From contig CAXXIN010000015.1 in NCBI GenBank assembly GCA_963665275.2, positions 32,001-96,000 of the forward strand: 64,000 nt of DNA, read 5' to 3'. The notes under the pieces were generated by a model. That model did not search any database and was not told where the DNA came from. It was given only the letters and a program-made list of their open reading frames with translations. The number at the start of each line of letters is the position of its first letter. The first letter of the stretch is position 1. A program made the position numbers and the translations under genes. Below, one piece after another: positions 29,448 through 61,172 of the stretch. Source of the DNA: Negativicutes bacterium. GTDB lineage: Bacteria > Bacillota > Negativicutes > UBA1444.

Positions 29448-29477
29448 TTTGTTTTCCCCCTCTTTGTTTATGAGCCA

Positions 29478-30116: not shown

Positions 30117-30117
30117 C

Positions 30118-31985: not shown

Positions 31986-32003
31986 ACAAAGGAGGAAAAC
32001 AGG

Positions 32004-32387: not shown

Positions 32388-32444
32388 CGAAATCGCCAGC
32401 GATGGACACCAGCGGCTGTAACAGGAACCGGCATAACGGCTCAG

Positions 32445-32479
32445 GCAAAAGCCCTCTCGCTCATGGAGAGGGCTTTTGC
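32445..32479. terminator. Probable intrinsic terminator
   Basis: GCAAAAGCCCTCTC-N7-GAGAGGGCTTTTGC, perfect 14-bp stem. Confidence 0.7.
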
Positions 32480-32535
32480 ACAGATGGGTCGAATTGTGAA
32501 ATATACGAGATATCTTAAAACAAAACCATAATGAG

Positions 32536-35279: not shown

Positions 35280-35660
35280 TTAGTCTAAAACCGCAATGGC
35301 CTCAATCTCCACCACGGCGCCTTTAGGCAGACCGCCCACCTCGACGGTGGACCGAGCCGGTGGATTGACTTTGAAAAACTCAGCGTACACTTCATTCATG
35401 GCCGCAAAGTTTTTCAGATCCGATAAGAACACGGTAGTTTTCACGACTTGATCCATTGAGCAGCCTGCCGCCTGCAAAACAGCCGCCAAGTTGGTGAGCG
35501 ATTGCTTGGTCGCAGCCGCAATATCAGTGACTAACTCGCCTGTTGCCGGATTGACCGGGATTTGGCCGGAGACAAACACCATGCCGCCTGCCTTAATACC
35601 CTGAGCGTATGGACCAATGGCCGCCGGAGCCAGTTCCGTCGCAATTTGAGTGTTTTTCAT
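35280..35660 (-). CDS. ridA: RidA family enamine/imine deaminase
   Basis: APAAIGPY.Q, SGQIP, VVKTTVFL, MN.VY..FF, PPARS and VEIEAIA; real start MKNTQ at 35660 with GGGAGG RBS. Confidence 0.92.
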   Translation of the reverse strand: MKNTQIATELAPAAIGPYAQGIKAGGMVFVSGQIPVNPATGELVTDIAAATKQSLTNLAAVLQAAGCSMDQVVKTTVFLSDLKNFAAMNEVYAEFFKVNPPARSTVEVGGLPKGAVVEIEAIAVLD

Positions 35661-35700
35661 AGTCGTTTCCTCCCATTCACATGTGGCGAACGCCGCTGCC

Positions 35701-38700
35701 TCAAGCCTTGAGTCCAGCGAGTTTGCGGTAATTTTCCAGTCTTTCTTTCGCATCCTCTTCGGTCTTGACGAACAAGGCCTCGGACTGCTCGGGGTATTGT
35801 TTTTTGCAGAGAAGAGTATCGTACTTCGCCCATCAGAAACTCGCGGAAGCTCGCCGTCGGCTCTTTTGAATCGAGTACGAACGGATTGGTTCCCTTCTCC
35901 TTCAATTCGGGGTTGTATCGATATAGGCCCCAATAGCCGCATTCGACCGCCCGTTTTGATTCGGCCTGACTGCAGCCCATGCCGGCCTTCAATCCGTGAT
36001 TGATGCACGGCGAGTAAGCGATGATGAGCGACGGTCCCGGATAGGCCTCCGCCTCGGCAATGGCTTTTAGGGTCTGGGCCTTATCAGCCCCCATGGCGAT
36101 TTGAGCGACATAGACATAGCCGTAGCTCATGGCGATCATGCCCAGGTCTTTCTTCTTGGTCTTCTTGCCGCTGGCGGCAAATTTGGCGATGGCCGCGGTC
36201 GGAGTCGCCTTGGAGGACTGACCGCCGGTATTGGAGTACACTTCGGTATCGAACACCAGCACGTTGACGTTCTCACCCCGACGCCAGCACGTGGTCCAGT
36301 CCGCCGAAGCCGATGTCATAGGCCCAACCGTCGCCGCCGAACAGCCAGTGCGAGCGTTTGACCAAGAAATCCCTGTTTTCATAAATGTCATTGAGCAGCG
36401 CATCGCTACCTTTGATTTTTTCCAGGGCGGCAATGAAACGATCGGCGCGCTCCCGAGTCCCGGTGCTGTTATCCTGATTGCTCAGCCAATCACTGCAGGC
36501 TGCCTTGAATTCCGCATCCAGATCCAGCGCCGCAGCCTGCTGGATTTTCTGGGCCAGCTGCCTGCGCAGTTGTTTCACGCCCACCATCATTCCCAGGCCG
36601 TATTCGGCATTGTCTTCAAACAGTGAATTCCCCCAGGCCGGTCCGTGGCCGAGATGGTTCGTCGTATAGGGGATGGCCGGCGCGCTGCCGGTCCAGACGG
36701 ACGAGCAACCGGTGGCGTTGGCGATCATCAGCCGGTCGCCGAACAACTGCGTCACGAGTTTGGCGTAGCCTGTCTCCAGACAACCGCCGCAAGCGCCCGA
36801 GAATTCGAGCAGCGGTTGTTCGAACTGGCTGCCTTTCACGGTAAAGAGGCTCATGGGATTCGGCTTGGGTGCGAGGTTTATCGCATAGTCCCACAGGGAA
36901 TCCTGATGCCGTTGGGTGTCCAGCGGCTTCATTTCCAGCGCTTTTTCCTTGGCCGGGCATACCTCGGCGCAGTTGCCGCAACCGGTGCAATCATTGACAG
37001 AGACAGCCAACCTGAACTGCAGGTCTTTGGCGCCGATCGCCGGTTTGGCGTTAAAGCCTGCCGGGGCAGCCGCCATTTCCGCCGCATTGACCAGTATCGG
37101 ACGAATGCAGGCGTGAGGGCAGACGAAGGAACACTGGTTGCACTGAATGCATTTGTCCATCTGCCATTCCGGCACGTTGATGGCGATGCCGCGTTTTTCA
37201 TAGGCGGACGAGCCCAATGGGAAGGTTCCGTCTTCCTGACCGACGAAGGCGCTGACCGGCAGTTTGTCACCTTCCTGGCGATTCATCGGTACGAGAATGT
37301 TGGTGATGAATTCCGGCGCCGCTTTTTGGCTTTCGCTACTGCAGGCGCAGGCGAACTTGGCTTGGTCGGCCGTCGTATCGGTCGCCGCTTTCCAAGCTGC
37401 CGGCGGCTCAATCTTAATCAAGGCATCCATCCCCTGAATAATGGCGGCATTATTCATCTCAATGACCTTGCTGCCTTTTTTGCCATAGGAGCTGACGACT
37501 GCGTCCTTCAGGTATTGGAGAGCTTTCTCCTGGGGAATGATGTCCGCCAGCTTGAAGAAGGCTGACTGCATGAGGATGTTGAAGCGTCCGCCGAGGCCGA
37601 GATCCTGAGCGAGTTTCACCGCGTTGATGATGTAGAACTGAATGTTCTTTTCGGCGATGAACTGCTTCATGCTGCCTGGCAGTTTTTCATCCAGTTCTTC
37701 GGCTGTCCAGGTCGTGTTCAGCAGGAAAGTCCCGCCGGGTTTCAGCCCTTCCAGCAGATCGTATTTGTCTACATAGGACTGCTGGGAACAGGAAATGAAA
37801 TCCGCTTTGTTGATGAGGTACGGCGCTTTGATCTGTTGGTTGCCAAAACGCAGATGTGATACGGTAATGCCGCCGGATTTCTTGGAATCGTAGGCGAAAT
37901 ACGCCTGTGCATACATGTCGGTTTTGTCTCCGATGATTTTGATTGCGCTCTTGTTGGCTCCGACCGTTCCATCGGCGCCCAGTCCCCAGAATTTGCAGGC
38001 GGTTGTTCCTGGAGCTGTCACGTCGATATCTTGTCCGAGGGACAATGAGGTGTAATTGACATCATCGATGATCCCTACGGTGAAGTTGTCTTTGGGCTGG
38101 CTCAGTTTCAGGTTGTCAAACACTTCCTGAATATGGCCGGGGATGATGTCTTTGCCGCCGACGCCGCAGCGTCCGCCGACGATGAGGGGTTGATGTTCCT
38201 TGCCATAGAAAGCGGTCTTGACATCCATGTACAGCGGTTCAGCCTGGGAACCCATCTCCTTGGTCCGGTCGAGAACAGCGATCCGCTGCACGGTTTTGGG
38301 AATGTGTTTGAAGAAATGCTCCAGAGAGAACGGCCGATAGAGATGAACAGTGAGGAGACCGACCTTCTCGCCGCGGGCATTGAGGTAATCCACCACTTCT
38401 TCGATGGTTTCACACATGGAACCCATGGCGACGATCAAACGATCCGCATCCGGCGCACCGTGATAGTTGAACAGGTGGTATTCACGGCCGGTGAGTGAGT
38501 TGATTTGGGCCATATAGTCTTCCACGATGTCCGGCAGATCCTTCCAGAAGCGATTGGAAACTTCCCGTTGTTGGAAGTGGATGTCCGGATTCTGCACGGT
38601 GCCGCGCAATACCGGATGATCCGGGTTGAGGGCTCCGCGGCGGAACGCATTCACCGCATCCCAGTCCATCAGTTTCTCCAGTTCGTCATATTCAAGAACT

Positions 38701-39260
38701 TCGATCTTTTGCACTTCATGAGAAGTCCGGAAGCCGTCAAAGAAATTGAGGAAGGGAACCCGTCCCTTGATCGCCGACAGATGGGCCACAGCCGCCAAAT
38801 CCATGACTTGTTGCACGCTGCTTTCGGCGAGCATGGCAAAGCCGGTCTGCCTCGTTGCCATTACGTCGGAATGGTCTCCGAATATACTGATCGCATTGGC
38901 GCCGATGACGCGGGCACTAACATGAAATACGCCGGGAAGAAGTTCGCCGGCAATCTTGTACATGTTGGGAATCATCAGCAGCAAGCCTTGCGACGCCGTA
39001 TAGGTCGTCGTCAATGCGCCTGCTTGCAACGAACCGTGCACAGCACCGGCAGCACCGCCTTCCGACTGCATTTCCACAACCTGAACGGTCTGCCCGAATA
39101 TATTCTTCCTTCCTTGTGCTGACCACTCATCGGTACTTTCAGCCATGTTGGACGAAGGGGTGATTGGAAAAATGGCGGCAACGTCGGTAAACGCGTAAGA
39201 TACATGAGCTGCCGCAGTATTTCCGTCCATTGTCTTCATTTTTCTTTTGTTTTTTGTCAT
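35701..39260 (-). CDS. nifJ: Pyruvate:ferredoxin (flavodoxin) oxidoreductase, with two apparent +1 frameshifts
   Basis: DGNTAAA, FPITPSS, EMQSEGGAAG, two 4Fe-4S motifs, GACGGC, GGDGWAYDIG. Removing one base at C4 36276-36279 and one at T6 35800-35805 restores ...DTEVYSNTGGQ...YPEQSEALFVKTEEDAKERLENYRKLA* (stop 35701-35703). Confidence 0.9.
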
Positions 39261-39346: not shown

Positions 39347-40003
39347 TTACTTGCCAGTCACAAAAATCACTCGCGCCACAGCAATGCCACCGGCGATGAT
39401 GACGATGGACAGCAGCGAACCCGGCAACCCGATCTTGGGAGCTATGAACGTAATCGCCAATCCCAGGATAATAGTCAGGATACCGATTTTAAGATGTCTG
39501 CGGGATAGTTCGGCGTAAACGGCGCCAAATACCGCCGGCAGGATGAAGCCGAACGCTTTGGTTACAAATTTCGGCACCATCGGCATGATCGCCGCTCCGA
39601 TAAACGTGAACAGCGTTAGAATCGCCACCGACACGAATACCGACCCGGCAATCCCGATGGTCGCCATCACATCTCCTTCAGGTGAACCCGGCTCAGCTCC
39701 GGCGACTCTCTGCGCCATTGTGGCGGCCGGCACACGGATATCGGCAACATTGCCGCACAACCAGCTGATATACGATCCGCCGATTCCCAGCATCGGGTAA
39801 AAGGATAACGGTTGTACGAGCCAGCTGACGCCGAAAGCGCTCAGCGCCACCGCGTAAATCTGCACCAAGTCAGTGAATTGCGGCATGACGCCTACGACTC
39901 CAGCGAGATAAAGGGCCGGAACAAAATTGGCGATCAAGCCTGCGACCAGAGTAAACATTCCGATGCGGGCAGACTGGGCCTGAAAATCATAATTGCCTTC
40001 CAT
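39347..40003 (-). CDS. Uncharacterised membrane protein, partner of DUF5058 (copy 1)
   Basis: Multi-TM; P.SFYP.LG..GSY.SWL.GN...RVP motif; near-identical to 51508-52167. Confidence 0.8.
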   Translation of the reverse strand: MEGNYDFQAQSARIGMFTLVAGLIANFVPALYLAGVVGVMPQFTDLVQIYAVALSAFGVSWLVQPLSFYPMLGIGGSYISWLCGNVADIRVPAATMAQRVAGAEPGSPEGDVMATIGIAGSVFVSVAILTLFTFIGAAIMPMVPKFVTKAFGFILPAVFGAVYAELSRRHLKIGILTIILGLAITFIAPKIGLPGSLLSIVIIAGGIAVARVIFVTGK

Positions 40004-40051
40004 ATCGATCCTCCTCTATCAATTTGTGAAACAAATCATCAGGGGGTACTC

Positions 40052-40747
40052 TTAGAAAAAGTAGGCCGCCGTGAACATACCAATCAGCATCGCGATTCCC
40101 AGAGCCGGTTCCTGCAGCCGGGGGTAATTGCCGGCATACTTTGAAATCAGATACATGGAAACAAAAGCCACGATTCCGGCCACAAACTGTCCGCCGCCCT
40201 TAATCAGGGCAGGACTCCACAGGGAAGCAAACAGGCCGATCGCAGCGCCCGTCATGATGAGCTTCACCCACGCGGGATTATATTTTTGATTCATTTTCTT
40301 GATGGCGGAGTTCATGCGCTTGACGAAGATCAGCGCCACCAGCATCCAGCCGGCATTGTTCATCGCCATGCCCCAGATCGCATAGCTGAAAGCCTTGAGA
40401 TCAAAAGCAGCGGATCGCATTTCAACACCGTACACTTTCGTGGCCAGCGCCGACATGGCCAGCTCGGTCCGGGCAGCGCCGATGTCGTTCATCCGCATCC
40501 AAGTTGTAGGACCACCAAGCACTGCCAGCAGCGCCAGCAGGATGACTACTGGAGCCAGAGATGGCCCGATCGCGGTGATCATGGCAGCGCGCATCCCCTT
40601 GATGCACTCGCTGCGGGGCATTCCCAGTTTGTTGGCCGCCCTGAATCCTTCCCGCATAAACAGGGCGCTCTGGACCAAAACCACGATCACCATGACACTA
40701 GAGGCGATCCACATTCCTGGACTGTTCATTACCGTCTGCAGATTCAT
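40052..40747 (-). CDS. DUF5058 family membrane protein (copy 1)
   Basis: ITAIGPSLA, LGGP.TWMR...IG....EL and L.E.ALGIAMLIGM; near-identical to 52194-52889. Confidence 0.75.
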   Translation of the reverse strand: MNLQTVMNSPGMWIASSVMVIVVLVQSALFMREGFRAANKLGMPRSECIKGMRAAMITAIGPSLAPVVILLALLAVLGGPTTWMRMNDIGAARTELAMSALATKVYGVEMRSAAFDLKAFSYAIWGMAMNNAGWMLVALIFVKRMNSAIKKMNQKYNPAWVKLIMTGAAIGLFASLWSPALIKGGGQFVAGIVAFVSMYLISKYAGNYPRLQEPALGIAMLIGMFTAAYFF

Positions 40748-40771: not shown

Positions 40772-41935
40772 TTACTGATTATCCATATTCAACACGCAGG
40801 CGATCATCAATTTTGACCTTTCAAACAGCGTGTCAACCACGGCAAATTCCTCCGGGCTGTGATTGCGTCCACCTTTCACTCCCATCGAACACACAGTAGG
40901 AACGCCCGCTATGATGGTATAAGCGGAATCCGACGCGCCACCAACATATTTCGCATACGGCGTTCCAAAGCCGTTTTCTTCTGATGTTTTCTTGACCAAC
41001 TCAAACAACTGTTTCACGCCTTCAGTTGTCTTCATCGGCTTAATCCCTTCCATAAAGACAACTTGGGTTGTTGTCCCGTCGACAACAGTCTTTGCCCCCA
41101 CCGCCTGGAGCTGTTCGAGAATCCAAGGCAAGTCATCCGGATCCTTATAGCGCACATCAATATCGATTTTCGCATAGTCGGGGACAGCCGTGGACGTCTT
41201 CCCACCCTGCATGACCCCCACGTTGAAACTGATTCCCTTATCCCAATCCGTCAATTTTTGAACATCAATAATCTTATGCGCGATTTCCAAAATTGCGCTC
41301 CGACCATTTTCCGGATCATTCCCGGCATGCGCCGCCACGCCGTTGACCTCCAACATAAAACGTGCCACACCCTTACGTCCAACCACGATTCCATTATCGA
41401 CAAATCCGGTTTCGGTATTGAACGCGGCCGCATATCCCTTCGCTTCTTCCAGGAAAACTTCCGGCGCGTTGGATCTGGCGTGCAGCACCTCTTCATCCCC
41501 AGCTAAAACAACTTTAATAGGGCGCGAGCTGTATCCAATAGACTTCAACGCTTTTATCGCATAGAGAAAAGCAACGATACCGCCCTTCATATCGAGAACT
41601 CCCGGGCCATAAGCCTTGCCGTCCGTGATGGTAAAAGGTTGTCTGGCAATGGCGCCTGCCGCAATCGCGGTATCCATATGCCCCATAAAAATGACACCTG
41701 GTTTGGTTCCGGCCTCTCCCAACTCTGCGACTAGCATGTTGCCGGCATTCTCGAACTCGACCGTGCGGGAAGAAGCTCCAACTTCATCCAGCACCTTTTT
41801 GAATCTGGCGGCAACCGCGTCAATCCCTGGTTTTTCGTGTGGCCCGCTCTCCATATTGACCACTTCTTGCCACAGCGACACCATTTCTTCCCGCCGGTCG
41901 TCTACAAACTGAAAAGCCCTCTGTTTTTGATTCAT
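40772..41935 (-). CDS. M20 family metallopeptidase/amidohydrolase (carboxypeptidase G2-like)
   Basis: GHMDT, GPGVLDMKGG, GDEE, GVAAHAG, GGASD and HSPEE. Confidence 0.9.
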   Translation of the reverse strand: MNQKQRAFQFVDDRREEMVSLWQEVVNMESGPHEKPGIDAVAARFKKVLDEVGASSRTVEFENAGNMLVAELGEAGTKPGVIFMGHMDTAIAAGAIARQPFTITDGKAYGPGVLDMKGGIVAFLYAIKALKSIGYSSRPIKVVLAGDEEVLHARSNAPEVFLEEAKGYAAAFNTETGFVDNGIVVGRKGVARFMLEVNGVAAHAGNDPENGRSAILEIAHKIIDVQKLTDWDKGISFNVGVMQGGKTSTAVPDYAKIDIDVRYKDPDDLPWILEQLQAVGAKTVVDGTTTQVVFMEGIKPMKTTEGVKQLFELVKKTSEENGFGTPYAKYVGGASDSAYTIIAGVPTVCSMGVKGGRNHSPEEFAVVDTLFERSKLMIACVLNMDNQ

Positions 41936-42025
41936 CTCTTTATCCTCCTTTATGTGTTAAACACTTCGCGAACACTAGAGACATTCTATTGATCAAGGGT
42001 TATACCCGGGGGCAATAATAATTCG

Positions 42026-42080
42026 CAAAAAGCGCTTCAACCAAAGATATTCTCGTTATTCTTTGTTCAAAGCGCCTTTG
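42026..42080 (-). terminator. Probable terminator after the GRE activase gene
   Basis: Long imperfect inverted repeat CAAAAAGCGCTTCAACCAAAGA...TCTTTGTTCAAAGCGCCTTTG; T run on the minus strand. Confidence 0.55.
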
Positions 42081-42119
42081 CTTTCTCAAGCAATGGGACC
42101 TGTGGCAGATGTCTTTCGT

Positions 42120-43028
42120 TTATTTGAAATCTACAATGTGCAGCCCATATTCGGTTATTATTCTTTTTATCTCGTCTATTTTTGCGGCATCCGGTGTACT
42201 AAAGGACTGGCTGGCAGCCCCAACTGCGTTATATTTAGCGGCTCCGAAATCATGGTAAGGGAGAAGTTCCACCCCTTCCACGCTGGTATTACTCTTCAGA
42301 TATTCACACATTTTCCTGATATTTTTCTCGCTGGCGTTCACTTCTTCGATCAGCGGGACTCGTACTATCGTGTTCGGATTCAATTTGGATATCGCTGCAA
42401 TATTCTCCAAAATCCTGCGATTGCCGACTCCGGTCATTTGCTGATGAACCTCGTCATCCATATGCTTGATATCCACAAACACACAATCCAGATGCCCAAC
42501 GATATCTTTTGCCGAATCCCAGTCGAAATACCCGCTCGTTTCCACTGCGGTATCGATCCCCAACCGGTTGCAGGCCGTCACTAGTTGCCGCAAAAATTCA
42601 GGCTGTGCGAAGGGCTCTCCGCCGGAGAAAGTGACGCCTCCGCCGGATTCACGGTAAAAAATCGCATCTCTTTTGATTACCGCCAAAACGTCTTCGACCA
42701 TCACCGTAGAGCCTATCTTCTTGCGGGCGCCTGTTGGGCAAACTTCGCAACAGCGAAAGCAGGCTATGCATTTTTCACGGTCAAACTCACTTTTGTTTTC
42801 ATCTCCCATGGTAGCGGCTGCGGTAGGGCAAGCCTCTCCACATCGACCGCAGCCGCTGCACTTTTCACGGAGGTACAATACTTCAGGATTGCCATTCCAC
42901 GATTCCGGATTGGCGCACCACCGGCAACGCAGCGGACAGCCTTTGAAAAAGACTGTGCTGCGTATTCCCTCCCCGTCGTTGATCGACCAGCGCTGGATCT
43001 GAAAGATATTTCCCTTACATGGTTTCAT
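42120..43028 (-). CDS. Glycyl-radical enzyme activating enzyme (radical SAM with ferredoxin insert)
   Basis: DGEGIRSTVFFKGCPLRCRWCANPES, CSGCGRC...CP, CIACFRC...CP and GGVTFSGGEP. Confidence 0.93.
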   Translation of the reverse strand: MKPCKGNIFQIQRWSINDGEGIRSTVFFKGCPLRCRWCANPESWNGNPEVLYLREKCSGCGRCGEACPTAAATMGDENKSEFDREKCIACFRCCEVCPTGARKKIGSTVMVEDVLAVIKRDAIFYRESGGGVTFSGGEPFAQPEFLRQLVTACNRLGIDTAVETSGYFDWDSAKDIVGHLDCVFVDIKHMDDEVHQQMTGVGNRRILENIAAISKLNPNTIVRVPLIEEVNASEKNIRKMCEYLKSNTSVEGVELLPYHDFGAAKYNAVGAASQSFSTPDAAKIDEIKRIITEYGLHIVDFK

Positions 43029-45384
43029 AGGTCGTTCTTTCTATAATCGCGTCCTGCGCTTCGCGGGACAAGTTGACGAATTGCGTGCTGTAACCGGCGA
43101 CCCGGACCAGCATATCCCGGTAGTCCTCTGGATGCTCCTGCGCTTTGCGCAGCGTTTCGGTCGAAATCACGTTAAACTGAACATGAAACGCGCCAAGTGC
43201 AAAGTACGCCCTGATAATAGCGGCCAAATTTTTCAGGTTCCGCTCCGACTTCAGCAGTTCCGGCGCCAGTTTTACGTTCATCAGCGTACCGCCGGAATGG
43301 ATGTCATGATTGATTTTGGCGACTGAACGCATCGCCGCGGTAGGGCTCGTCAAATCAGTGCCCGCATGCGGAGAAACGCCTTCCGTCAAAGGAGTTTGCG
43401 ATTTTCTTCCATCCGGAGTCGCACCAATCACACTGCCGGCCGGGATATAGTTGGAGATTCCCATAAACGCCGAGTTAAACAGCGAGCCAAAATAATCTTT
43501 ATACGAACGGATTTGTTGGTGATAAAACTCGGTAATTTCTACGGCGATTGAATCGACATAGTCGATATCGTTGCCATATTTGGGGCAGGCCAGCGCCGCT
43601 TGCCTCAGTTCTTCAAACCCTTTCCAGTCCGCATCCAATGCCTGGCAGATTTCTGCCAATGTGTATTTTTTGTCCTCGAATACCAATTTTTTAATCATCG
43701 CCAGGGAATTCGCCGTGTCCGCCACGCCAATCCCTGTGAGAACCGGCCCAACATTATATTTGGCGCCGCCCTTGCTCAAGTCTTGGCCTTTTTCCATGCA
43801 GCCGTCCACAAGCAGGGACAGGTAAGGCCTGGGCACCATTTCCGCATGGATTTGCTGCGCAGTGATCGTGCCGATAACCGAATGCTTGATCAAATAAGCA
43901 ATCTGCCGGTAAACGGCTGCTTTAACTTCATCATAGTTGGTAAATGACGAGGCGTTCTGTTCAGTCACTCCCATATTTTTACCTGTGATCCGGCTCTTGC
44001 CGTTGTTGAGGGCGTATTCGACCGCCGCCGCCAGGTTGATGCTGACCGCCGAGGTCCACTCACCCACTTTTCGGAAGTGGGGAACCACGCATCCACAGTT
44101 GCTCCAGTCCCGTGCATCTTCGGGGGAGAGGCCCGCCGCAACCAGCATGGCCGAGCCGACCCGGTCATTGTGTACCGCCGGGAATCCTGTCCCCACGCTG
44201 ATCAATTTGCATACCGCCAGCAGAAACTCATCCGGACTGTCGGGATGAATTCGTACGCTGAGACCCGGCTGATGCGTCTTCACATTTTCAGTTGCTTTCA
44301 GGCACATATAGGAGAGTTCGTTGGTTGCATCGCGTCCATCCCGTGTCCTGCCGCCTACGGTCAAATTTTGGAACGAATTGTATCCGGCAAAAAACTTGGC
44401 GGTGTTGCTGGAAATGGCCCACACCCATTCCGACAGCTTAATCCACAGGGCCTCAATCAGTTCCTGGGCTTTTTCCGTTGTGAGAACGCCTGCTTCGATA
44501 TCCTTGGCGAAATACGGGTACATGTACTGATCAAATCGTCCCAAATTCAGGGCCAACGAATTCTCGGACAGGATGGAACCCAGTTGGGTAAACCACACCA
44601 TCTGCACCGCTTCATAGAAAGTGGTTGGAGGGTTTTCCGGCACTCTCCGGCAAGTTTCGGCAATTGCCAATAACTCGGCTTTGCGCAGAGCATCTGTTTC
44701 CGTCTGCGCCGCTTTTTCCGCTTGGTCCGCATATCGGTTGGCGAGGGTGATGATCCCTTCAGATACCAGTACTGCCGCCCGGTAGAAATCGACTTTCTCC
44801 AGGGCTTCGGCCGTAACTGCCTCAATACTGTCAAGATGGGCCTGCGCCTCTTTTTTGATCCCGCCAAAACCCTTTTTGAATATCACATCCTGATAATCAG
44901 CGGTAACTTCTCCTACGGCATTACGCCACTTCGAATCATTGTCGATGATGCCGGTATCAATCAAAATGTTGGCGGTTTCCGGGTTGATGCGCGCCAAAAA
45001 GGTCTCTTCCAGCGACTTGCCTTGCCAGTAAGGGAATATATCCTTACGCAAGGTGCGTTTGGAAATGTCATCAACACAGTATGGATCCTGATTACGACTC
45101 TCGAAAGTGTCCATCTCGCTGTCGACCCATTTCCACGAGTATTCAGGGCAAATGATGCCCGACTTGCGAAACTCACCGATCGCCCCGACAATCAACTCGT
45201 TATCAAATATAGTGGCCGGAATGCTCTCGCAGACAGCTTTGAACGCTTTAGCCCGCCTGATGATCACTGCTTCTCCCTCTGTCTGTTTATGCGACGCGGT
45301 AAAAGCCAGCGCACGTTTAACACTGATCGATGGTTTGGAATCAATGTACGACCTTTTAAACTCTTCAATCCGTTTGCTTGACAT
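43015..45384 (-). CDS. Glycyl radical enzyme (PFL2/dehydratase-like length), substrate unknown
   Basis: 789 aa; LGRFDQY, QNLTVGG, Cys loop WSNCGCVVPH, PKYGND, ATPDGR and Gly loop VRVAGYS. Confidence 0.92.
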   Translation of the reverse strand: MSSKRIEEFKRSYIDSKPSISVKRALAFTASHKQTEGEAVIIRRAKAFKAVCESIPATIFDNELIVGAIGEFRKSGIICPEYSWKWVDSEMDTFESRNQDPYCVDDISKRTLRKDIFPYWQGKSLEETFLARINPETANILIDTGIIDNDSKWRNAVGEVTADYQDVIFKKGFGGIKKEAQAHLDSIEAVTAEALEKVDFYRAAVLVSEGIITLANRYADQAEKAAQTETDALRKAELLAIAETCRRVPENPPTTFYEAVQMVWFTQLGSILSENSLALNLGRFDQYMYPYFAKDIEAGVLTTEKAQELIEALWIKLSEWVWAISSNTAKFFAGYNSFQNLTVGGRTRDGRDATNELSYMCLKATENVKTHQPGLSVRIHPDSPDEFLLAVCKLISVGTGFPAVHNDRVGSAMLVAAGLSPEDARDWSNCGCVVPHFRKVGEWTSAVSINLAAAVEYALNNGKSRITGKNMGVTEQNASSFTNYDEVKAAVYRQIAYLIKHSVIGTITAQQIHAEMVPRPYLSLLVDGCMEKGQDLSKGGAKYNVGPVLTGIGVADTANSLAMIKKLVFEDKKYTLAEICQALDADWKGFEELRQAALACPKYGNDIDYVDSIAVEITEFYHQQIRSYKDYFGSLFNSAFMGISNYIPAGSVIGATPDGRKSQTPLTEGVSPHAGTDLTSPTAAMRSVAKINHDIHSGGTLMNVKLAPELLKSERNLKNLAAIIRAYFALGAFHVQFNVISTETLRKAQEHPEDYRDMLVRVAGYSTQFVNLSREAQDAIIERTTYETM

Positions 45385-45454
45385 GAAAACTCCTCCTCAT
45401 TTCGTTTCACTTTATCTTCAATCATGCAGAACGACCATCGCTCAGCACGATCAT

Positions 45455-45475
45455 TATTTTCGATTTTCGAAAATA
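45455..45475. promoter_or_regulatory. Palindromic operator upstream of the GRE gene
   Basis: TATTTTCGA-TTT-TCGAAAATA, perfect 9-bp inverted repeat. Confidence 0.65.
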
Positions 45476-45494
45476 TATCAAATAAATATTTGGT

Positions 45495-46160
45495 TTACCG
45501 GCTCAAATATTTGCCCAGATTTTTCTTTGCGTCTGTCATGTGCTTACGCAGTAATTTCTGAGCCGCTTTCACATCATTTTTAGCGCAGGCGTCCAGCAAC
45601 ATCCGATGCTCGTTTTGCGATTTTTCCTGATAATGCAAGGTTGATAAATAGAGTCGCATATAGCGTTCAATGTTATTGTGCATGTTTTGAATAAGCAAGA
45701 GCAATTTAGGCCGATTCGCCGCATGATACAGGATTTCATGAAACTGCCAGTTCAGTCCGCCCCAACGTTTGCTGTCGCCTTCCGAATCGACTTCCTTCAA
45801 CACTTCTTCGGCGGCGTCTAGCTCCGCTTCGGTCAAATTGGGAATCGCCAACTCTAATGCTCCTAATTCCAGATACAGCCGTATATCGAAAATTTCCTGC
45901 GCTTCCTCGGCAGACAGCTCACTGACCACCGCGCCGCGATTGGGATAAAATTTGACGAGCCCTTCGGCTTCCAGACTTTTGAGCGCTTCGCGCAGCGCGC
46001 TCATGCTGACGTTGAACTTCGAGGAGAGTTCCTCTTGTTTTAACTGGACTCCTCCGCTCAGTTCACCGGATAAAATGGCCTCCCGCAGGCTATTGGTGAT
46101 CATTTCCGGCAAAGTACAATATGCGGTTTGTATCTGCGTTTTGAAATTGTAGTTTTTCAT
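45495..46160 (-). CDS. GntR family regulator (FCD domain)
   Basis: LREAILSGEL, VS...REAL..L.AEGLV...PNRGA, N..FH..L and S.NEH; start taken at MKNYN. Confidence 0.9.
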   Translation of the reverse strand: MKNYNFKTQIQTAYCTLPEMITNSLREAILSGELSGGVQLKQEELSSKFNVSMSALREALKSLEAEGLVKFYPNRGAVVSELSAEEAQEIFDIRLYLELGALELAIPNLTEAELDAAEEVLKEVDSEGDSKRWGGLNWQFHEILYHAANRPKLLLLIQNMHNNIERYMRLYLSTLHYQEKSQNEHRMLLDACAKNDVKAAQKLLRKHMTDAKKNLGKYLSR

Positions 46161-46273
46161 GTCTTTACTATACAATATTTCATCCGCTTCGTAAACAGAA
46201 TTTTCGAATGTATACATTATTTTTATGTTCTGACAAATCGTCTATATCTCTATAAAATAATATGTTCAAGGAA

Positions 46274-47299
46274 TTAATATTCTTCGAAGATTCGTTGGAT
46301 TTCTTTCACATCCTGAGTTTTGCTCAAAGCCAGCATCAACAAGATTCGCGCTTTTTGCGCATTATGCATCATGGCAGCTACAAATCCGGCTTGACGCCAC
46401 TTCGCGGTAAGTGTGCTCAAGCCTGTGCCGACTCTCGACCCTACGACAATCGCCACCCCTTTTTCACGAGCCTTCACCAGGCTTTCCATCGCATCATCCG
46501 GCACATTGGCATGTCCAAGACCCGCATTGACAATCCCTTTCGCACCTGCCAAAACGGCAGCATCAATGAATAATCCGTCCGAACCCAGCGTGGTGTAATT
46601 CACGTCAACCCGTGGCAGTTCCGTCAAGTTCGCCACGTCAAATTCCGTTTGATAGGTATGTTTTTTCTGGAGTGAAGAAATAAAAAACGGTTTGGAATTT
46701 TGCATATAGCCGAGAAACCCGGTATCAGGACAATGAAAGGTAGCAACGTTGGTTGAATGGGTTTTTGTCACGCCAAAGGCACTGCTGATTTGGTCGTTCA
46801 TACAAACCATGACGCCCTTGTCTTTGGCTTCCAGACTTGCCGCCAGAGCCACGGCATTCACGAGGTTGAGCGGTCCATCCGCACTTAGTCCGGTTGACGG
46901 TCGCATAGAACCGACTAGAACGACCGGTTTGTCAGATTTTACGACGAGATTTAAAAAATATGCCGTCTCTTCCAACGTATCAGTACCGTGGGTAATAACA
47001 ACCCCGTTGATATCCTTCGACGCGAGTAATTCATTGGTCCGTTTCGCTAGTTTCAGCCAGTCGCCAATGCCAAGTTTGGAACTGGCGATATTAATCACCT
47101 GTTCACCGGAAATCTGCGCGAACTGCTCAATTTCCGGTACAGCAGCAATCAAGCTCTGAATAGCTACCGGCGATATCCCCGCATTGCTCCCATAATCCGT
47201 CAGCGCCAAACTATCGGCGCCTCGGCTGGCAATAGTACCTCCGGTAGCTAAAATCGCAATATGCGCCTTATCCTGATTTTCTTTTTGTACCTGGTTCAT
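46274..47299 (-). CDS. Asparaginase/glutaminase family amidohydrolase (type II-like, no signal peptide)
   Basis: ATGGTIA, HGTDTLEETAYFL, GSMRP..SADGP.NL and KARILL.LAL. Confidence 0.9.
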   Translation of the reverse strand: MNQVQKENQDKAHIAILATGGTIASRGADSLALTDYGSNAGISPVAIQSLIAAVPEIEQFAQISGEQVINIASSKLGIGDWLKLAKRTNELLASKDINGVVITHGTDTLEETAYFLNLVVKSDKPVVLVGSMRPSTGLSADGPLNLVNAVALAASLEAKDKGVMVCMNDQISSAFGVTKTHSTNVATFHCPDTGFLGYMQNSKPFFISSLQKKHTYQTEFDVANLTELPRVDVNYTTLGSDGLFIDAAVLAGAKGIVNAGLGHANVPDDAMESLVKAREKGVAIVVGSRVGTGLSTLTAKWRQAGFVAAMMHNAQKARILLMLALSKTQDVKEIQRIFEEY

Positions 47300-47317
47300 A
47301 ATGCTCTCCCTTGTAAG

Positions 47318-48607
47318 TTAGATACGAATATAACCGCGACCGTCCTTGATTTCAATTTGGGTCCCATATTCATTGGAAAGATTGGCCAGTTCAGTTAGAA
47401 TTCGATTGCCGTCTTCAATCGAGGCCAATTCCGGCCTGCCTTTCACGGATCGCTTCTTCTCAAAGCCGAGTGTGATCGGAATCAATTCAACGCGCTCAAT
47501 CTTGCCGTCCTCAACCTGGAATGAAGCCATCACCGATTCAAATACTTTTCGGTTTACCGCCAGTCCCTTGGTTCCATTTTTGCTGCGGGCATCGAAGGCA
47601 TCCGAAGGTGTGTGGCTCGCATCCAGACCGTAAATGTCGAAAAACTCGGCAGGTTGCCGTTCGATTGAATCGTTCTGAATGATAAAATCACCCAAGCTAT
47701 AGAAAATGGGTTGGTTTTTATAGACCTCGAAACCTCGCAAAATGTGGGGACCGTGCCCCAGATAGGCGTGAGCTCCGCTATCAATGCACAAACGGGCAAA
47801 GTCGCGGGTGAAATCAGCGGAGATGTCCTTGGTCGCACCTTTAAACTCATGCACGTGATGGCTGACCAATACAACATCCGCTTGCCGCCCGGCCTCTTTA
47901 ATAGCTTTCACGATGCGTTCCGCGTCTTTTTGATTATACGTGGTAACCGATCCTTGGTCCCCGACTTCAAAGCGGATATTGCCAATCGCGAAACCTTCCT
48001 CCGGCTTGGCAAAGCCCTCACTTTCCAATTGGAAACGCCGGGCATTGACATCGGTTTTATTTACGATTTCTTTCAATGTCTCGATATCCTCTTGGGGCAG
48101 ATAGTGAACCGCATTGAAACGCAGCATGTTGATTCCCGGCCGTCCTATAACATCCGGCCGCTGCTCGCCGGCAATATGCCAGTCTTTTCCCGTCGAGCTT
48201 ACGCTAATCAGCGCAACACGCCCCTGTGCGGTTTCCAGATACTTGGGTTGGCTTGCTTCTGCCATATTATTGCCGATCCCGGCATAAACGCACTCGGCAT
48301 TATCCAGATGCCGCATAGTGGTGAGCAGGCCTTCATGGCCCCAATCCAGAGCATGGTTGGTGGCGCAGGCATACAAATTGAAGCCGATCCAATTCAAATC
48401 CTGAACGATCTGTGGCCGGGCAGCGACCCACGTTCCTCCGCTGACCGCAGCCGGAGATACTTCAAAATCATGAACCAACAATTCGAAATTGGTAAATCGG
48501 ACATCCGCTGTTTCCAACAAAGCCTTGAGTTTCAGACAAGGCTCGGCAGTGCGCGGCAACCGTTGGGCCAGCAAGGAGTCTCCTGTTGCAATAATCGAAA
48601 TGGTCAT
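47318..48607 (-). CDS. CapA/PGA_cap family metallophosphoesterase-like protein
   Basis: ATGD, TNFE, ATNH.LDWG, VSHH.HE, GHGPH.LRG.E.Y and FYSLGDF. Confidence 0.8.
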   Translation of the reverse strand: MTISIIATGDSLLAQRLPRTAEPCLKLKALLETADVRFTNFELLVHDFEVSPAAVSGGTWVAARPQIVQDLNWIGFNLYACATNHALDWGHEGLLTTMRHLDNAECVYAGIGNNMAEASQPKYLETAQGRVALISVSSTGKDWHIAGEQRPDVIGRPGINMLRFNAVHYLPQEDIETLKEIVNKTDVNARRFQLESEGFAKPEEGFAIGNIRFEVGDQGSVTTYNQKDAERIVKAIKEAGRQADVVLVSHHVHEFKGATKDISADFTRDFARLCIDSGAHAYLGHGPHILRGFEVYKNQPIFYSLGDFIIQNDSIERQPAEFFDIYGLDASHTPSDAFDARSKNGTKGLAVNRKVFESVMASFQVEDGKIERVELIPITLGFEKKRSVKGRPELASIEDGNRILTELANLSNEYGTQIEIKDGRGYIRI

Positions 48608-48612
48608 GAACT

Positions 48613-50238
48613 CTATTCCGTCCTTCCCAGAACTCTGCCTTGATATACTTTTTGGTGGCAGCCTTTGTCGATGGCCACTTGCCCGTTCACAATGACGGTT
48701 TCAATCCCTGTGGAGTATTGTTTTGGCTCGGTATAGGTCGCCTGGTCCTGCACCGAATCCGGATTGAAGATGACAATATCCGCGTAATATCCCTGCCGGA
48801 TCAGACCGCGTCCGCCCAAGCCGAGGCGCCGCGCAGGACGGTCTGTCATCTTTTGGATGGCGTCTTCGAGTGAAAGCGCTTTCAATTCCCTTACATAGCG
48901 TGCCAATAGGCGGGTTGGCGTGCCAAAAGCCCGCGGATGGGGCTTGCCGTAGGAAAGGATGCCTTCCGCTGACAAACTCATGGCATCCGAGCCGATCATC
49001 GCCTGCGGTTGCTGCAGGAACGTGATTACATCCTCTTCCTTCATGGCGTAATAGTTCATCTGCACCCGGCCGTTTTCCGCAATCAACAGGTCAAACGCCG
49101 CATCATAGGGATCTTTTCCCTGCAACTCAGCGATTTCCGTAATGAATTTCCCTTCCAGAACCTTATTTTCTTCACTGCGAACCGAAGACACAAAGAATTT
49201 CCCCCAGCCGCCCGCTGATTTGACGAAGTTTTGCCATCCCGGCAAACCTTCGTTGATTTCCTGCCGCAGCCGAGTTCGAATTGAGGAATCGCCAAGCCGC
49301 CCGATCATCTTGTCCACGCCGCCTTCGAATATCCATGGCGGCATGCAGGCGGAAAGCGAAGTCAGGCCGGCAGTGTAGGGGTATACGTCATAGGACACTT
49401 CGATTCCCGAGCGTTCCGCTCTCGCCAGTCGCTCCAGCACCAAATCGGTCTTACCCAGCATATTCTGGCTCAACAGTTTCATATGCGAGATATGCACCGG
49501 CACGCCACCGGCTTCGCCAATCTGCAGCGCCTCCTCGATCGCATCCATGATCCCGTCGCTCTCTGTGCGCATGTGCGTGCAGTAAATCCCTTTATACGGT
49601 GCGATGGTCTTGCAAAGTTCGCCAATCTCCTCCATGGAAGAATATTCACCCGGCAGGTAGACCAGGCCGGAACTAAGTCCCAAAGCGCCTTCCGACATCG
49701 ACGCATCGACGAGGCGTTGCATCTCTTTCAATTCCACCGCATTGGGGTTTCCTTTGGCAAACCCCATCACAGCAATCCTCACCACGCCCTGCCCTACCAG
49801 CGGTGCGATATTCAACGCCGGAGGGGTATTTTTAACATGTTGCAAATACTCATCGAAGCTCGCCCACGGGAGTTCAATCTTGACCGGGATCGATCCAATC
49901 AGGCGGGTGCCTAGATAGTCAATCAGAAGCTCCCTGTTCTCCTCTTTGATCGGCGCTGGACCGATGCCGCAGTTGCCTACAACTTCGGTGGTCACACCGC
50001 TATATATCTTGCTGTTGGCATTCCGGTCATACACAACGGACAGGTCTGAATGGGTATGCATATCAATAAAACCAGGCGCCACAACATTGCCGTGGGCATC
50101 GATCGTTGCACCGCTTTCGCAGTCAGTCAGATTGCCGATTGCTGCGATCCTGTCCCCCACTATCCCAACATCGCCGTGATAAGCGATTTTCCCGCTGCCA
50201 TCGACGATACGGCCGTTAATAATCTTGAGATCAAACAT
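48613..50238 (-). CDS. N-acyl-D-amino-acid deacylase (D-aminoacylase) 1
   Basis: PGFIDMHTHSD, GVTTEVVGNCG, GLSSGL.Y.PG, HMR.E, HISH.K, DVYPY, GSD and HPRAFGT. Confidence 0.9.
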   Translation of the reverse strand: MFDLKIINGRIVDGSGKIAYHGDVGIVGDRIAAIGNLTDCESGATIDAHGNVVAPGFIDMHTHSDLSVVYDRNANSKIYSGVTTEVVGNCGIGPAPIKEENRELLIDYLGTRLIGSIPVKIELPWASFDEYLQHVKNTPPALNIAPLVGQGVVRIAVMGFAKGNPNAVELKEMQRLVDASMSEGALGLSSGLVYLPGEYSSMEEIGELCKTIAPYKGIYCTHMRTESDGIMDAIEEALQIGEAGGVPVHISHMKLLSQNMLGKTDLVLERLARAERSGIEVSYDVYPYTAGLTSLSACMPPWIFEGGVDKMIGRLGDSSIRTRLRQEINEGLPGWQNFVKSAGGWGKFFVSSVRSEENKVLEGKFITEIAELQGKDPYDAAFDLLIAENGRVQMNYYAMKEEDVITFLQQPQAMIGSDAMSLSAEGILSYGKPHPRAFGTPTRLLARYVRELKALSLEDAIQKMTDRPARRLGLGGRGLIRQGYYADIVIFNPDSVQDQATYTEPKQYSTGIETVIVNGQVAIDKGCHQKVYQGRVLGRTE

Positions 50239-50361
50239 TATCCTGCACTTCCCTTCCTTGAATACCTGCGAATGGCTAAAAACGACCCCTAATGAAAATG
50301 CCAAATCCGGCGCAGATGGGATTCCACGCCGGATGCAGCTTCGTCAATCTTGAGATCCGAT

Positions 50362-51474
50362 CTACTTGATGACTTCCCTGCCGACCATCATCCGTTCCAG
50401 TGCTTTTTCATCCACTGCGTAACTGACGCCGTTCGTCTCATCAGGCACGATGAGCGTGCACCGATCGGTAATATTGACATGAGGAGTCGTGATATCGTCT
50501 TTGAAATAGCGGTTGCTGGCAGCGATATCATGGGCCAGGAGAGTGAAGTTCGGCAGACTGGCGAACGAGATGTTCTGTACGCGCCCGATGCCGAGTTCCG
50601 TCATGCCGCCGACCCATATGGGGATGTTGTGCTGCATGCAGAGATCGTGAATCCTGACAGACTCGCACAAACCGCCGCAGCGGCTGGATTTGATGTTGAT
50701 GATTTTGCAGCTGCCCATCGCGATGGCATGCCGCGCCGTGTCATATGAAACGATGCTTTCATCGAGGCAGACCGGTGTCTTGATGGCTTTCTGCAACACG
50801 GCATGGTCGATGATGTCGTCTTCGGCCAGCGGCTGCTCGATGTATTGCAGGTTCAGATCATCCATGGCCCGGAACAGGTCGATGTCCGCCAGCGTGTAAT
50901 CCGAGTTGGCATCCACGGTCAGCGTGATATCCGGATAATGGCGGCGGATTTCCCGCAGCACTTCGATATCCCAGCCTGGCTTGATCTTAATCTTGGTCCG
51001 GTGATAGCCTTCCGCCAGATACTTTTCGATCTTTCCGAGCAGGGAAGCTACTGTCGGTTCAATGCCGAGACTCACACCGACCTTGACCTCGGATTGCGTC
51101 CCCCCGAGCAGGGTCTTCAGCGACTTGCCCTCCCGCTGGGAATGCAGTTCCCAGAGCGCGTTCTCCACGGCGGCGATGGCGAGACGGTTGCCACGGATAA
51201 AGGTCATTTTGCGCATAAAGTCGTATGGGTCCTGAATCTCTTGGTGCAAAATCACCGGCGCGATGATGTTCTTGATGATGTGGAAGCAGGTGCCGTTGTC
51301 TTCAGGATTATACAGCGGTCCATAAAACGCTTTACATTCGCCATAGCCAGTAAGCCCCTCTGAATAAACCTTGATGATCAGGGCATCCCGTTCGACAAAT
51401 CGGGTGAAACTGGTTTCAAAGGGGTGGAGGAACGGGTTTTTCACATGAATAATATCAATTCGGTCAATTTTCAT
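50362..51474 (-). CDS. NSAR/OSBS subfamily enolase-superfamily enzyme (N-acylamino-acid racemase-like)
   Basis: PFETSF, GVSLGI, KIKIKPG (KxK), VDAN, IEQP, LDES, INIK and GGM.E; no men genes nearby and flanked by aminoacylases. Confidence 0.85.
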   Translation of the reverse strand: MKIDRIDIIHVKNPFLHPFETSFTRFVERDALIIKVYSEGLTGYGECKAFYGPLYNPEDNGTCFHIIKNIIAPVILHQEIQDPYDFMRKMTFIRGNRLAIAAVENALWELHSQREGKSLKTLLGGTQSEVKVGVSLGIEPTVASLLGKIEKYLAEGYHRTKIKIKPGWDIEVLREIRRHYPDITLTVDANSDYTLADIDLFRAMDDLNLQYIEQPLAEDDIIDHAVLQKAIKTPVCLDESIVSYDTARHAIAMGSCKIINIKSSRCGGLCESVRIHDLCMQHNIPIWVGGMTELGIGRVQNISFASLPNFTLLAHDIAASNRYFKDDITTPHVNITDRCTLIVPDETNGVSYAVDEKALERMMVGREVIK

Positions 51475-51507
51475 TACTCACAACTTCCTTCCTGTAATAC
51501 CACGATA

Positions 51508-52167: not shown

Positions 52168-52193
52168 ATCGATCCTCCTCTATCAATTTCTTT

Positions 52194-52889: not shown

Positions 52890-52909
52890 AGTTACCCTCC
52901 TCCATTATT

Positions 52910-54541: not shown

Positions 54542-54570
54542 TCGATTCACCTCCGTCCCACTAATTTTCC

Positions 54571-55446: not shown

Positions 55447-55464
55447 CTCATTCTTTGATTTTTT

Positions 55465-56790: not shown

Positions 56791-56848
56791 TACAGCTCCA
56801 CCCTCCGGTACATTTTTCGTCCAGTTTTATCGTAATATTTTAGGCTGC

Positions 56849-61167: not shown

Positions 61168-61172
61168 TCAGC

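Follow-up and report, generated by a model that had tools for sequence, protein, structure and literature searches.

A clade of glycyl radical enzymes with an invariant Cys-Gly-Cys-Val-Val loop, seen from a Negativicutes genome

The chemistry of a glycyl radical enzyme (GRE), an oxygen-sensitive catalyst, is largely read from its Cys loop. In the current summary, two loop cysteines occur only in pyruvate formate-lyase (PFL) and TdcE, and PFL2-type enzymes need a Cys-x-Glu motif; a widespread clade in which a Cys-Gly-Cys-Val-Val loop is invariant contradicts it on both points. The clade is described here from a 64,000-nucleotide stretch of the Negativicutes contig CAXXIN010000015.1 (the window, meaning the whole stretch of DNA analysed), which encodes a 789-residue GRE with the loop WSNCGCVVPH. 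It is very probable that the enzyme is genuine and active and that its clade, so far uncharacterised, has a chemistry other than the known Cys-x-Glu kind. Its assignment to an uncharacterised GRE class, made by sequence comparison, held on every test run. The features that carry this finding are as follows.

43015..45384 (-): glycyl radical enzyme of the CGCVVPH clade, 789 aa (Pfam, NCBIfam, family alignment, tree, AlphaFold2 model)
44077..44106 (-): Cys loop W427-S-N-C430-G-C432-V-V434-P-H436, residues 427-436, WSNCGCVVPH
43093..43095 (-): codon of G764, the radical-storing glycine of RVAGYS, invariant in 42/42 sequences
42120..43028 (-): GRE activating enzyme (activase), radical SAM with a two-cluster ferredoxin insert, 302 aa (TIGR02494, 354 bits vs 174)
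45495..46217 (-): GntR/FCD transcription regulator (GntR PF00392, E 2.5e-14; FCD PF07729, E 3e-27)

The GRE open reading frame (ORF) is translated without a stop, and Pfam assigns it a PFL-like domain (PF02901, E 6e-224) and a Gly_radical domain (PF01228, E 4e-34). The protein belongs to IPR004184, with the barrel domain and the C-terminal glycine-radical domain bearing the R-V-x-G motif, and it has the catalytic cysteine at the tip of the Cys loop: C432 aligns with C489 of the choline trimethylamine-lyase CutC and is the same in all 42 sequences of the family alignment. The GRE nucleotide region recurs with 0 differences in contigs from two public runs, X1 and X2; one of these runs is possibly the window's own source. 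Taken together, the sequences show an intact GRE, with a dedicated ferredoxin-insert activase and a GntR/FCD regulator, that is maintained by selection. A preliminary description of this DNA had reported the same three genes and the same loop; all three genes are found where it placed them, and the loop is confirmed at 44077-44106.

Conservation of the loop is nearly complete. A homologue scan with one genome per species yielded 80 loci (L001-L080). At 53-93% identity to the window GRE lie L001-L052, 50 of them with a readable loop; CGCVVP is present in 49 of these, as (S/N)-N-C-G-C-V-V-P-H, the exception being SLGCVVPN in L048. At no more than 41% identity lie L053-L080, which carry G-C-V-E-P in 26 of 28 cases, no loop being read by pattern in the other two. 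A metagenome scan added 48 further family loci, with CGCVVP in all 41 whose loop could be read. The arrangement is not a chance one, since 90 of 91 readable loops carry it when genome and metagenome loci are pooled, over a range of 53-94% identity to the window GRE. When the window protein is aligned with 41 full-length relatives at 53-93% identity (42 sequences), 209 of its 789 positions are invariant, among them C430, G431, C432, V433, V434, P435, H436 and G764, each identical in 42 of 42. Of the two loop cysteines, C432 is the one that forms the thiyl and C430 is additional; V434 stands in place of the eliminase Glu. Outside the family the combination is rare. A search without a word index against 1.84 billion protein cluster representatives was evaluated for the query and its best 150 matches (151 rows): a Cys at -2, the Cys itself and a Val at +2 occur together in only two rows, the query and one fragment of the same family, and Glu stands at +2 in at least 105. 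Among these best 150 matches, the closest full-length one outside the family is at 41% identity.

Profile searches point the same way. Among NCBIfam models only the subfamily model TIGR01774 passes on the GRE (741 bits vs 678); the enzyme falls below the cut-offs of the CutC equivalog TIGR04394 (763.4 bits vs 1050), the PFL equivalog TIGR01255 (164.1 bits vs 994.2) and the HypD model (598 bits vs 1100). The top match in a sequence search of solved structures is CutC, at 748 bits. Glycerol dehydratase and propanediol dehydratase are, together with CutC, the nearest solved relatives (38-41% identity), and no characterised or solved GRE exceeds 41% identity to the window enzyme. The Cys-x-Glu motif of GRE 1,2-eliminases and isomerases is replaced by C432-V433-V434. 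As far as the available part of a June 2026 review goes (PMC13450708), all eliminases and isomerases retain Cys-x-Glu, Glu491 is essential in CutC, C-O eliminases keep the motif with its Glu hydrogen-bonded to the substrate hydroxyl, two loop cysteines belong to PFL and TdcE only, and a GRE with a CGCVVP loop does not appear. A full-text literature search found no paper characterising the loop or the family; subscription journals and supplements lay outside that search, and a recent report could be missed. The preliminary description had proposed an uncharacterised GRE class, to be given up if the enzyme clustered at high identity with a characterised GRE having the same loop; no such enzyme was found, and the proposal stands on the single passing subfamily model, the distance to solved relatives and the review.

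The fold and the tree place the family close to CutC. An AlphaFold2 model of the GRE, built on 25 family sequences, reaches pLDDT 82.4 and pTM 0.88. The model and its Foldseek comparison give the ten-stranded barrel fold, with TM 0.94 to CutC (38-41% identity) and TM in the range 0.93-0.94 for CutC and glycerol dehydratase. Identities in the fold comparison fall from 40% for glycerol dehydratase through 38% for propanediol dehydratase, 36-38% for HpyG/HpzG and 33% for HypD to 28-29% for the X-succinate synthases. The 57 rows of a FastTree phylogeny comprised 10 family rows (out of 25), those of the representatives P0124-P0174 that are 740-899 aa long, and the window genome's own HypD. The tree has only two landmarks, a representative with the CutC signature and that HypD, because L053-L080 matched no equivalog model: 0 of 28 reach one at E <= 1e-250, and TIGR01774 is matched in 8 of 28. 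All 10 family rows form one clade (SH-like support 100, stem 0.45), which groups at support 99 with the CutC-signature representative and P0126, the nearest non-family representative, itself without a close solved relative. This topology shows the clade branching beside the CutC-signature representative, within the PFL2/eliminase radiation. The HypD (trans-4-hydroxy-L-proline dehydratase) used as a landmark scores 1443 bits against the cut-off of 1100 (contig C16, L081:1084-3648 and 3462-4361, minus strand). The activase beside it, whose ORF overlaps that of HypD at the ends, reaches 410 bits against a cut-off of 425 on the HypD-activase equivalog and clears the general GRE-activase model TIGR02494 (336 vs 174).

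Residues of the CutC active site, as listed in the available part of PMC12451663, were mapped onto the window enzyme through an HMMER alignment to the D. alaskensis CutC chain 5kdp_A, a mapping that carries alignment and no geometry.

44908..44934 (-): pocket residues S151, K152, N155, E159, aligned with CutC Y208, H209, N212, D216 (HMMER alignment; S151, K152 and E159 invariant in 42/42)
CutC Y208: S151
CutC H209: K152
CutC N212: N155
CutC D216: E159
CutC T334: L277
CutC F389: F332
CutC F395: F338
CutC M487: C430
CutC C489: C432
CutC E491: V434
CutC Q493: H436
CutC T502: T444
CutC Y506: S448
CutC L698: M641
CutC I700: I643

The mapped positions are invariant across the 42 sequences, except for 155 (N/Q/S) and 448 (N/S/T). 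The hydrophobic side of the CutC pocket is retained in the alignment, and F332, F338, T444 and I643 match their CutC counterparts. Both tyrosines that hold the trimethylammonium group are lost (Y208 to S, Y506 to S/N), the pocket acid is kept one methylene longer (D216 to E159) and a lysine is gained beside it (H209 to K152). Among the CutC residues Y208, D216, E491, T502 and Y506, aligned here with S, E, V, T and S, T502 alone is kept. At the loop, the thiol of C430 replaces Met487, which belongs to the active-site shell of CutC (PMC12451663, available part), and Val434 replaces the Glu; both substitutions had been claimed in the preliminary description, as a Val for the eliminase Glu and a second Cys two residues before the catalytic one. 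P0126 already has Lys and Glu at the sites of K152 and E159 and keeps a G-C-V-E-P loop; the Lys/Glu pair is therefore older than the loss of the loop Glu.

The activase is of the type expected for a dedicated radical SAM partner. The activase gene starts 14 nt before the GRE gene ends, and Pfam 4Fe-4S dicluster matches at residues 53-101 of its product correspond to the ferredoxin insert. No NCBIfam equivalog model passed on it, and the BssD-type model TIGR04003 reaches 232.7 bits against a cut-off of 496. The regulator gene lies 110 bp upstream of the GRE and has both an N-terminal GntR winged helix and a C-terminal FCD domain; its product is the likely local regulator of the GRE operon. Three further putative signals flank the pair.

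45453..45481 (-): promoter-like site TTGATA-17-AATAAT in the GntR-GRE spacer (consensus scan 10/12; pattern match only)
45463-45474 (-): perfect palindrome ATTTTCGAAAAT, a candidate operator overlapping the promoter-like site (read from the sequence; pattern match only)
42025..42081 (-): stable hairpin and U-run in the activase-M20 spacer (RNA fold -22.9 kcal/mol, z -4.4)

None of 200 shuffles folds as well as the hairpin, which is not listed by the terminator scan. It is possibly a terminator or attenuator separating GRE and activase from the M20 cassette described below, and its position between the activase and the M20 gene suggests that the GRE and its activase form a transcription unit of their own. 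Rfam matches, riboswitches included, were absent upstream of the GRE in 14 loci lacking a regulator and between 30 and 56 kb of the window. Two metagenome loci have an azaaromatic (yjdF) riboswitch on the opposite strand, downstream of the GRE by a few kb (L113:13884-14005, L129:16671-16792); it is probably unrelated.

The family neighbourhood is sparse. Genome-locus neighbours were counted over all ORFs in the window and the 52 genome loci (53 in total). The activase adjoins the GRE in 47 of 53, the other six loci ending at contig edges, and a regulator is adjacent in 32: a GntR/FCD orthologue directly upstream of the GRE in 10, and an HTH_3-cupin protein in its place in other lineages (22). 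An M20 or M20D amidohydrolase, the commonest accessory neighbour, lies within 7 kb of the GRE in 14 of 53. Across the 97 genome and metagenome loci with neighbours, the counts are 69 for the activase, 35 for HTH_3-cupin, 17 for GntR, 12 for M20 and 5 for M20D. Most loci hold regulator, GRE and activase only; when CGCVVP homologues were compared as the preliminary description had advised, activase and regulator proved to be the sole consistent neighbours, with nothing further at most loci. The amidohydrolase is usually paired with two small membrane proteins, either DUF5058 with a 218-aa protein (after the activase in L013, upstream of the regulator in L003) or a Gate/YjiG-like pair (L005, L006, L008, L035, L038). 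Hosts of such M20/M20D and membrane-protein cassettes include Sporomusaceae-like genomes, uncultured Clostridia, Dysosmobacter and metagenome-assembled genomes (MAGs) of Veillonellaceae, Oscillospiraceae and Acidaminococcaceae; in a C. difficile genome the cassette lies 5 kb from the GRE. The preliminary description had inferred an amino-acid, N-acyl or D-amino-acid substrate from the window's neighbours. This idea holds only in part: amidohydrolase and membrane pair do recur in several distant lineages, though at no more than 14 of 53 loci, and the genes for D-amino acids (an NSAR-like racemase, D-aminoacylase-like amidohydrolases and PGA_cap) are shared with the close relatives L003, L086, L124 and L126 only.

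Other neighbours are confined to particular lineages. Six Mogibacterium-type loci have a leuA-leuCD-leuB-DUF815-ilvA-ilvE run directly before the GRE; in L112 IlvA is found on the downstream side. One lineage (L091, L094, L134) has pta-ackA immediately upstream, in the same orientation. In L092, L093 and L127 the activase is followed by NrdD-NrdG. A threonine-aldolase-like enzyme adjoins the GRE in L052, L103 and L100; L023, L092, L093 and L131 have an Fe-S aldo/keto reductase as immediate neighbour, and L116 has an alanine racemase upstream. After the activase stand an EFR1 ferredoxin in six loci and ResA-like and NapH-like proteins in Anaerotignum. Pyruvate:ferredoxin oxidoreductase (PFOR) follows the cassette only in Sporomusaceae-like relatives (L004, L006, L008).

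Carriers of the clade are found in Negativicutes, Clostridia, Peptostreptococcales, Oscillospirales and some Desulfobacterota and Synergistota MAGs; Lucifera butyrica, Sporomusa spp., Anaerotignum lactatifermentans and Intestinibacter bartlettii are in culture. Within the window's order, 9 of 13 genomes have an orthologue at 76% identity or more. The window's own genome, 92.6% complete, has HypD as its single other PFL-like GRE and no canonical PFL, and one Mogibacterium and one Megasphaera genome have no PFL-like GRE besides the CGCVVP family. In Anaerotignum lactatifermentans, Intestinibacter bartlettii and one C. difficile genome, three of the six genomes checked, the family is accompanied by a canonical PFL whose loop reads A-C-C-V-S. 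A complementarity with PFL was considered and rejected, the family being the sole PFL-like GRE in some genomes and co-occurring with PFL in three, with no clean pattern. The GRE is split into two ORFs in Terrisporobacter petrolearius (L020) and Anaeroglobus geminatus (L052), and the activase is split in Intestinibacter bartlettii (L021), through decay or sequencing error.

In the window itself, the GRE lies inside an island of about 22 kb on one strand, from 57991 to 35657, that also holds two M20 enzymes, two large amidohydrolases, an NSAR-like racemase, a class IV aminotransferase, a pyridoxal-phosphate (PLP) enzyme, a PGA_cap protein, an asparaginase and PFOR. The genes downstream of the activase are these.

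40772..41935 (-): M20 metallo-amidohydrolase, carboxypeptidase-G2-like (Pfam Peptidase_M20 and M20_dimer; best solved relative 1cg2, E 5e-39)
40052-40747 (-): DUF5058 membrane protein, small and multi-pass (Pfam, hydropathy profile)
39347-40003 (-): unnamed 218-aa membrane protein, small and multi-pass (hydropathy profile)
35657..39260 (-): PFOR in two reading frames (TIGR02176, 1551 bits; continues in ORF 35657-36433)

The DUF5058 and 218-aa pair (39347..40747) is presumed to be the uptake module of the M20 cassette. The frame breaks in PFOR are probably assembly errors rather than marks of a pseudogene, because at 36276 and again at 35800 the contigs of runs X1 and X2 are one base shorter. 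The membrane-protein pair occurs twice in the window, at 39347-40747 and 51508-52889, some 12.1 kb from each other. Protein identities of 96-99% and DNA identities of 91-98% between the copies point to a recent duplication. One copy of the pair comes after the GRE/M20 unit, and the other heads the racemase, amidohydrolase, PGA_cap and asparaginase genes. The part of the island at 46274-57991 encodes a type II asparaginase, a PGA_cap/MslH-like protein, two amidohydrolases of about 560 aa, an NSAR/OSBS-like enolase-superfamily enzyme, the class IV aminotransferase, a 441-aa PLP enzyme and the second M20; it may be a pathway for N-acyl-D/L-amino acids. Pfam found no microcompartment, aldehyde dehydrogenase or P5C reductase family in the 32 neighbouring ORFs scanned between 24.5 and 63.6 kb, the ORFs at 24032-24502 and 26102-26461 not being scanned; the preliminary description had said as much of the adjacent genes, and 0 of 32 matching bears it out. 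Likewise, the scanned neighbours of the GRE include no cut genes, and its annotated neighbours no genes for the beta and gamma subunits of X-succinate synthases, ORFs below 80 aa not having been examined. Farther off, a gene cluster at 26380-34330 is concerned with copper handling; it encodes a heavy-metal P-type ATPase that carries HMBD domains, a DUF302 protein, a multicopper oxidase and a two-component system. At 60199-63611 three genes in a row, a conserved trio, encode a circularly permuted ATP-grasp protein, a protein with an Alpha-E domain and a transglutaminase-like one.

What the enzyme does can be addressed only with graded confidence. In the usual eliminase step, the Cys-loop base deprotonates the substrate hydroxyl and the neighbouring group is expelled. 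This step would be unable to run as in CutC, glycerol dehydratase or HypD, because there is no carboxylate at +2 of the loop; we infer from the alignment a chemistry without a loop acid/base that would use two thiols. The reading that we rank first, still doubtful when taken whole with its mechanism, is a PFL/TdcE-like cleavage of a 2-oxo acid derived from an amino acid. The activase would install a radical on G764, which would oxidise C432 to a thiyl radical. The invariant second thiol, C430, would then take the part that the loop base no longer can: the radical would move from C432 to C430, which would attack the keto carbon of the 2-oxo acid, its carboxylate being held by K152. A formyl radical would depart and be quenched by the thiol of C432 to give formate, and the acyl group left on C430 would be handed to CoA. 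The 2-oxo acid would be supplied from amino acids or N-acyl amino acids via the M20 cassette, the aminotransferase and the PLP enzymes.

This cleavage is favoured because a second cysteine has been gained and an anionic Glu lost, as PFL-type chemistry needs, and it fits the scattered neighbours of 2-oxo-acid, threonine, acetyl-phosphate and formate-consumer type. Counted in its favour are Pta/AckA, IlvA/IlvE, the threonine-aldolase-like enzymes, PFOR, the class IV aminotransferase and PLP enzyme of the window's island, and the lack of a canonical PFL in the window's, Mogibacterium and Megasphaera genomes. The NrdD-NrdG neighbours are counted as well, because class III ribonucleotide reductase, in its formate-dependent form, is a possible sink for formate (PMC13450708, available part).

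A considerable list of observations weighs against the formate-lyase reading. The loop cysteines are spaced C-G-C, where those of PFL are adjacent (C-C); by descent the family belongs with the eliminases and not with PFL, and its score on the PFL model is low (164 bits vs 994); and the activase is of the ferredoxin-insert and not the PFL-AE type. Ser/Asn448 sits 16 residues after the thiyl cysteine, a position that we take to be that of Arg435 of PFL, which binds pyruvate; there is no Arg here. The invariant pocket residue E159 is superfluous for PFL chemistry and fits a cationic group on the substrate. Two segments of the pocket fall in poorly modelled parts of the AlphaFold2 structure (pLDDT <50 at 323-337 and 642-677). 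From the genomic side, three of the six genomes checked hold a canonical PFL alongside, no formate channel was seen beside the GRE, pta/ack occurs in one lineage only, and each neighbour of 2-oxo-acid type is limited to one to three lineages. The commonest accessory genes, M20/M20D with membrane proteins (14 of 53), point to an amide or amino acid and not specifically to a 2-oxo acid, and a dedicated regulator of substrate type beside the gene is unusual for PFL. The substrate assignment, drawn from sequence and context, is one of low confidence.

The retained features of the CutC pocket suggest a second possibility, which we consider unlikely though worth weighing: a lyase or isomerase with a relocated base, performing a CutC-like 1,2-elimination or a ring-opening (C-N or C-O) on a small zwitterion, for example an amino acid, a hydroxy-amino acid or a quaternary amine bearing a carboxylate. 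E159 would be the base or bind the ammonium, K152 would hold the carboxylate and C430 would merely line the pocket. Such an enzyme would suit the grouping with the CutC-signature representative, the conserved F332, F338, T444 and I643, and the pocket acid kept as Glu with a Lys beside it, a pair that P0126 combines with GCVEP and that thus predates the loss of the loop Glu. It would also suit the cassettes of amidohydrolase and uptake proteins, which release amino acids, and the IlvA and threonine-aldolase-like neighbours equally fit threonine as its substrate. Yet a relocated base leaves the invariant second Cys and the Val at +2 unexplained across about 90 sequences, both trimethylammonium-holding tyrosines are gone (Y208S, Y506S/N), and every characterised eliminase or isomerase in the available part of PMC13450708 has Cys-x-Glu, with Glu491 essential in CutC. 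Ranked third, and improbable, is a two-thiol hydrogen relay or redox enzyme of a kind undescribed for PFL-like GREs. As a relay, C432 would abstract a hydrogen and the thiol of C430 return one at another atom or face, giving C-C scission (for example glutamate to glycine and acrylate) or epimerisation; as a redox enzyme, the C-x-C pair would give electrons for a reduction, like the cysteine pair of class III ribonucleotide reductase. The second thiol is invariant, and a hydrophobic +2 residue without a loop acid/base fits homolytic chemistry such as that of the X-succinate synthases; the M20 enzyme resembles carboxypeptidase G2, which releases glutamate, and the carriers are mostly amino-acid fermenters. 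The ferredoxin-type and thiol-disulfide proteins after the activase in some lineages (EFR1 in six loci, ResA-like and NapH-like in Anaerotignum) could supply reducing power, but the ferredoxins may just serve the activase, the ResA-like protein looks extracytoplasmic, and no reductant system is conserved beside the GRE in the 53 and 97 loci. This relay or redox enzyme is an argument from chemistry alone, with no precedent among PFL-like GREs.

Two simpler explanations fare far worse. That the GRE is a decaying or non-catalytic paralogue is suggested by the split genes in L020, L052 and L021, and is highly improbable given the intact window ORF reproduced without difference in two runs, the 209 of 789 positions (Gly and Cys motifs included) that stay invariant down to 53% identity, the activase adjacent in 47 of 53 loci and the orthologues in 9 of 13 genomes of the order. 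That it is a plain choline trimethylamine-lyase or PFL is scarcely credible, even though close homologues are named 'Choline trimethylamine-lyase' (Sporomusa rhizae, S. termitida) or 'formate C-acetyltransferase' and CutC is the best solved match: the scores stop at 763 vs 1050 on TIGR04394 and 164 vs 994 on TIGR01255, Glu491 is Val, Y208 and Y506 are Ser, D216 is Glu, and cut or microcompartment genes are missing among the scanned neighbours.

Beyond any single mechanism, it is quite possible, if short of probable, that the clade is a new functional class of GRE, a second, independently evolved two-cysteine chemotype on the eliminase scaffold, working either as a convergent 2-oxo-acid formate-lyase or as a radical C-C/C-N lyase on an amino acid freed by the linked amidohydrolase cassette. 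If true, it would add an undescribed catabolic step to amino-acid-fermenting anaerobes of gut, rumen, sludge and sediment. The system is in any case a well-defined target for new anaerobic radical chemistry, being compact, with adjacent enzyme and activase and cultured carriers. Surveys that count cutC or pfl by similarity may miscount genes of the CGCVVP clade, because public records label close homologues choline trimethylamine-lyase or formate C-acetyltransferase. Such CutC and formate C-acetyltransferase names (e.g. P0090, P0117 and many JGI entries) are carried even though the defining residues are absent.

Among known systems, CutC with its activase CutD (a C-N 1,2-eliminase; PDB 5FAU, 5A0U, 9F3X) is the closest, sharing the best sequence and fold match, the same length, a ferredoxin-insert activase and the conserved F389, F395, T502 and I700. 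It differs by E491 to V, M487 to C, D216 to E, H209 to K, Y208 and Y506 to Ser (Asn in some relatives) and T334 to L; the window enzyme also fails the CutC equivalog cut-off and lacks a cut or microcompartment context. The B12-independent glycerol dehydratase, 1,2-propanediol dehydratase, HypD, HpyG and HpzG, all C-O eliminases, belong with the window enzyme to the PFL2-3 subfamily, with the same fold at 33-40% identity; every one of them keeps C-x-E. PFL and TdcE likewise have no Glu at +2, and some relatives of the window GRE lie beside pta-ackA, threonine dehydratase, PFOR or NrdDG, a pattern that resembles the logic of the E. coli tdc operon. In contrast to the C-G-C found here, PFL and TdcE have the adjacent pair C418-C419; their activase type differs, the equivalent of Arg435 is Ser or Asn in the window family, and PFL co-occurs in three of six genomes. 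The X-succinate synthases have a Cys loop without an acid/base Glu, and stand apart by their 28-29% identity, a BssD-type activase unlike the one here, and beta and gamma genes, which are missing among the annotated neighbours of the window GRE. Enzymes of this group (BSS, MASS) form a homolytic class (PMC13450708, available part), to which the window GRE may be likened. Their carriers are hydrocarbon degraders, whereas the CGCVVP carriers are amino-acid fermenters of gut and sediment.

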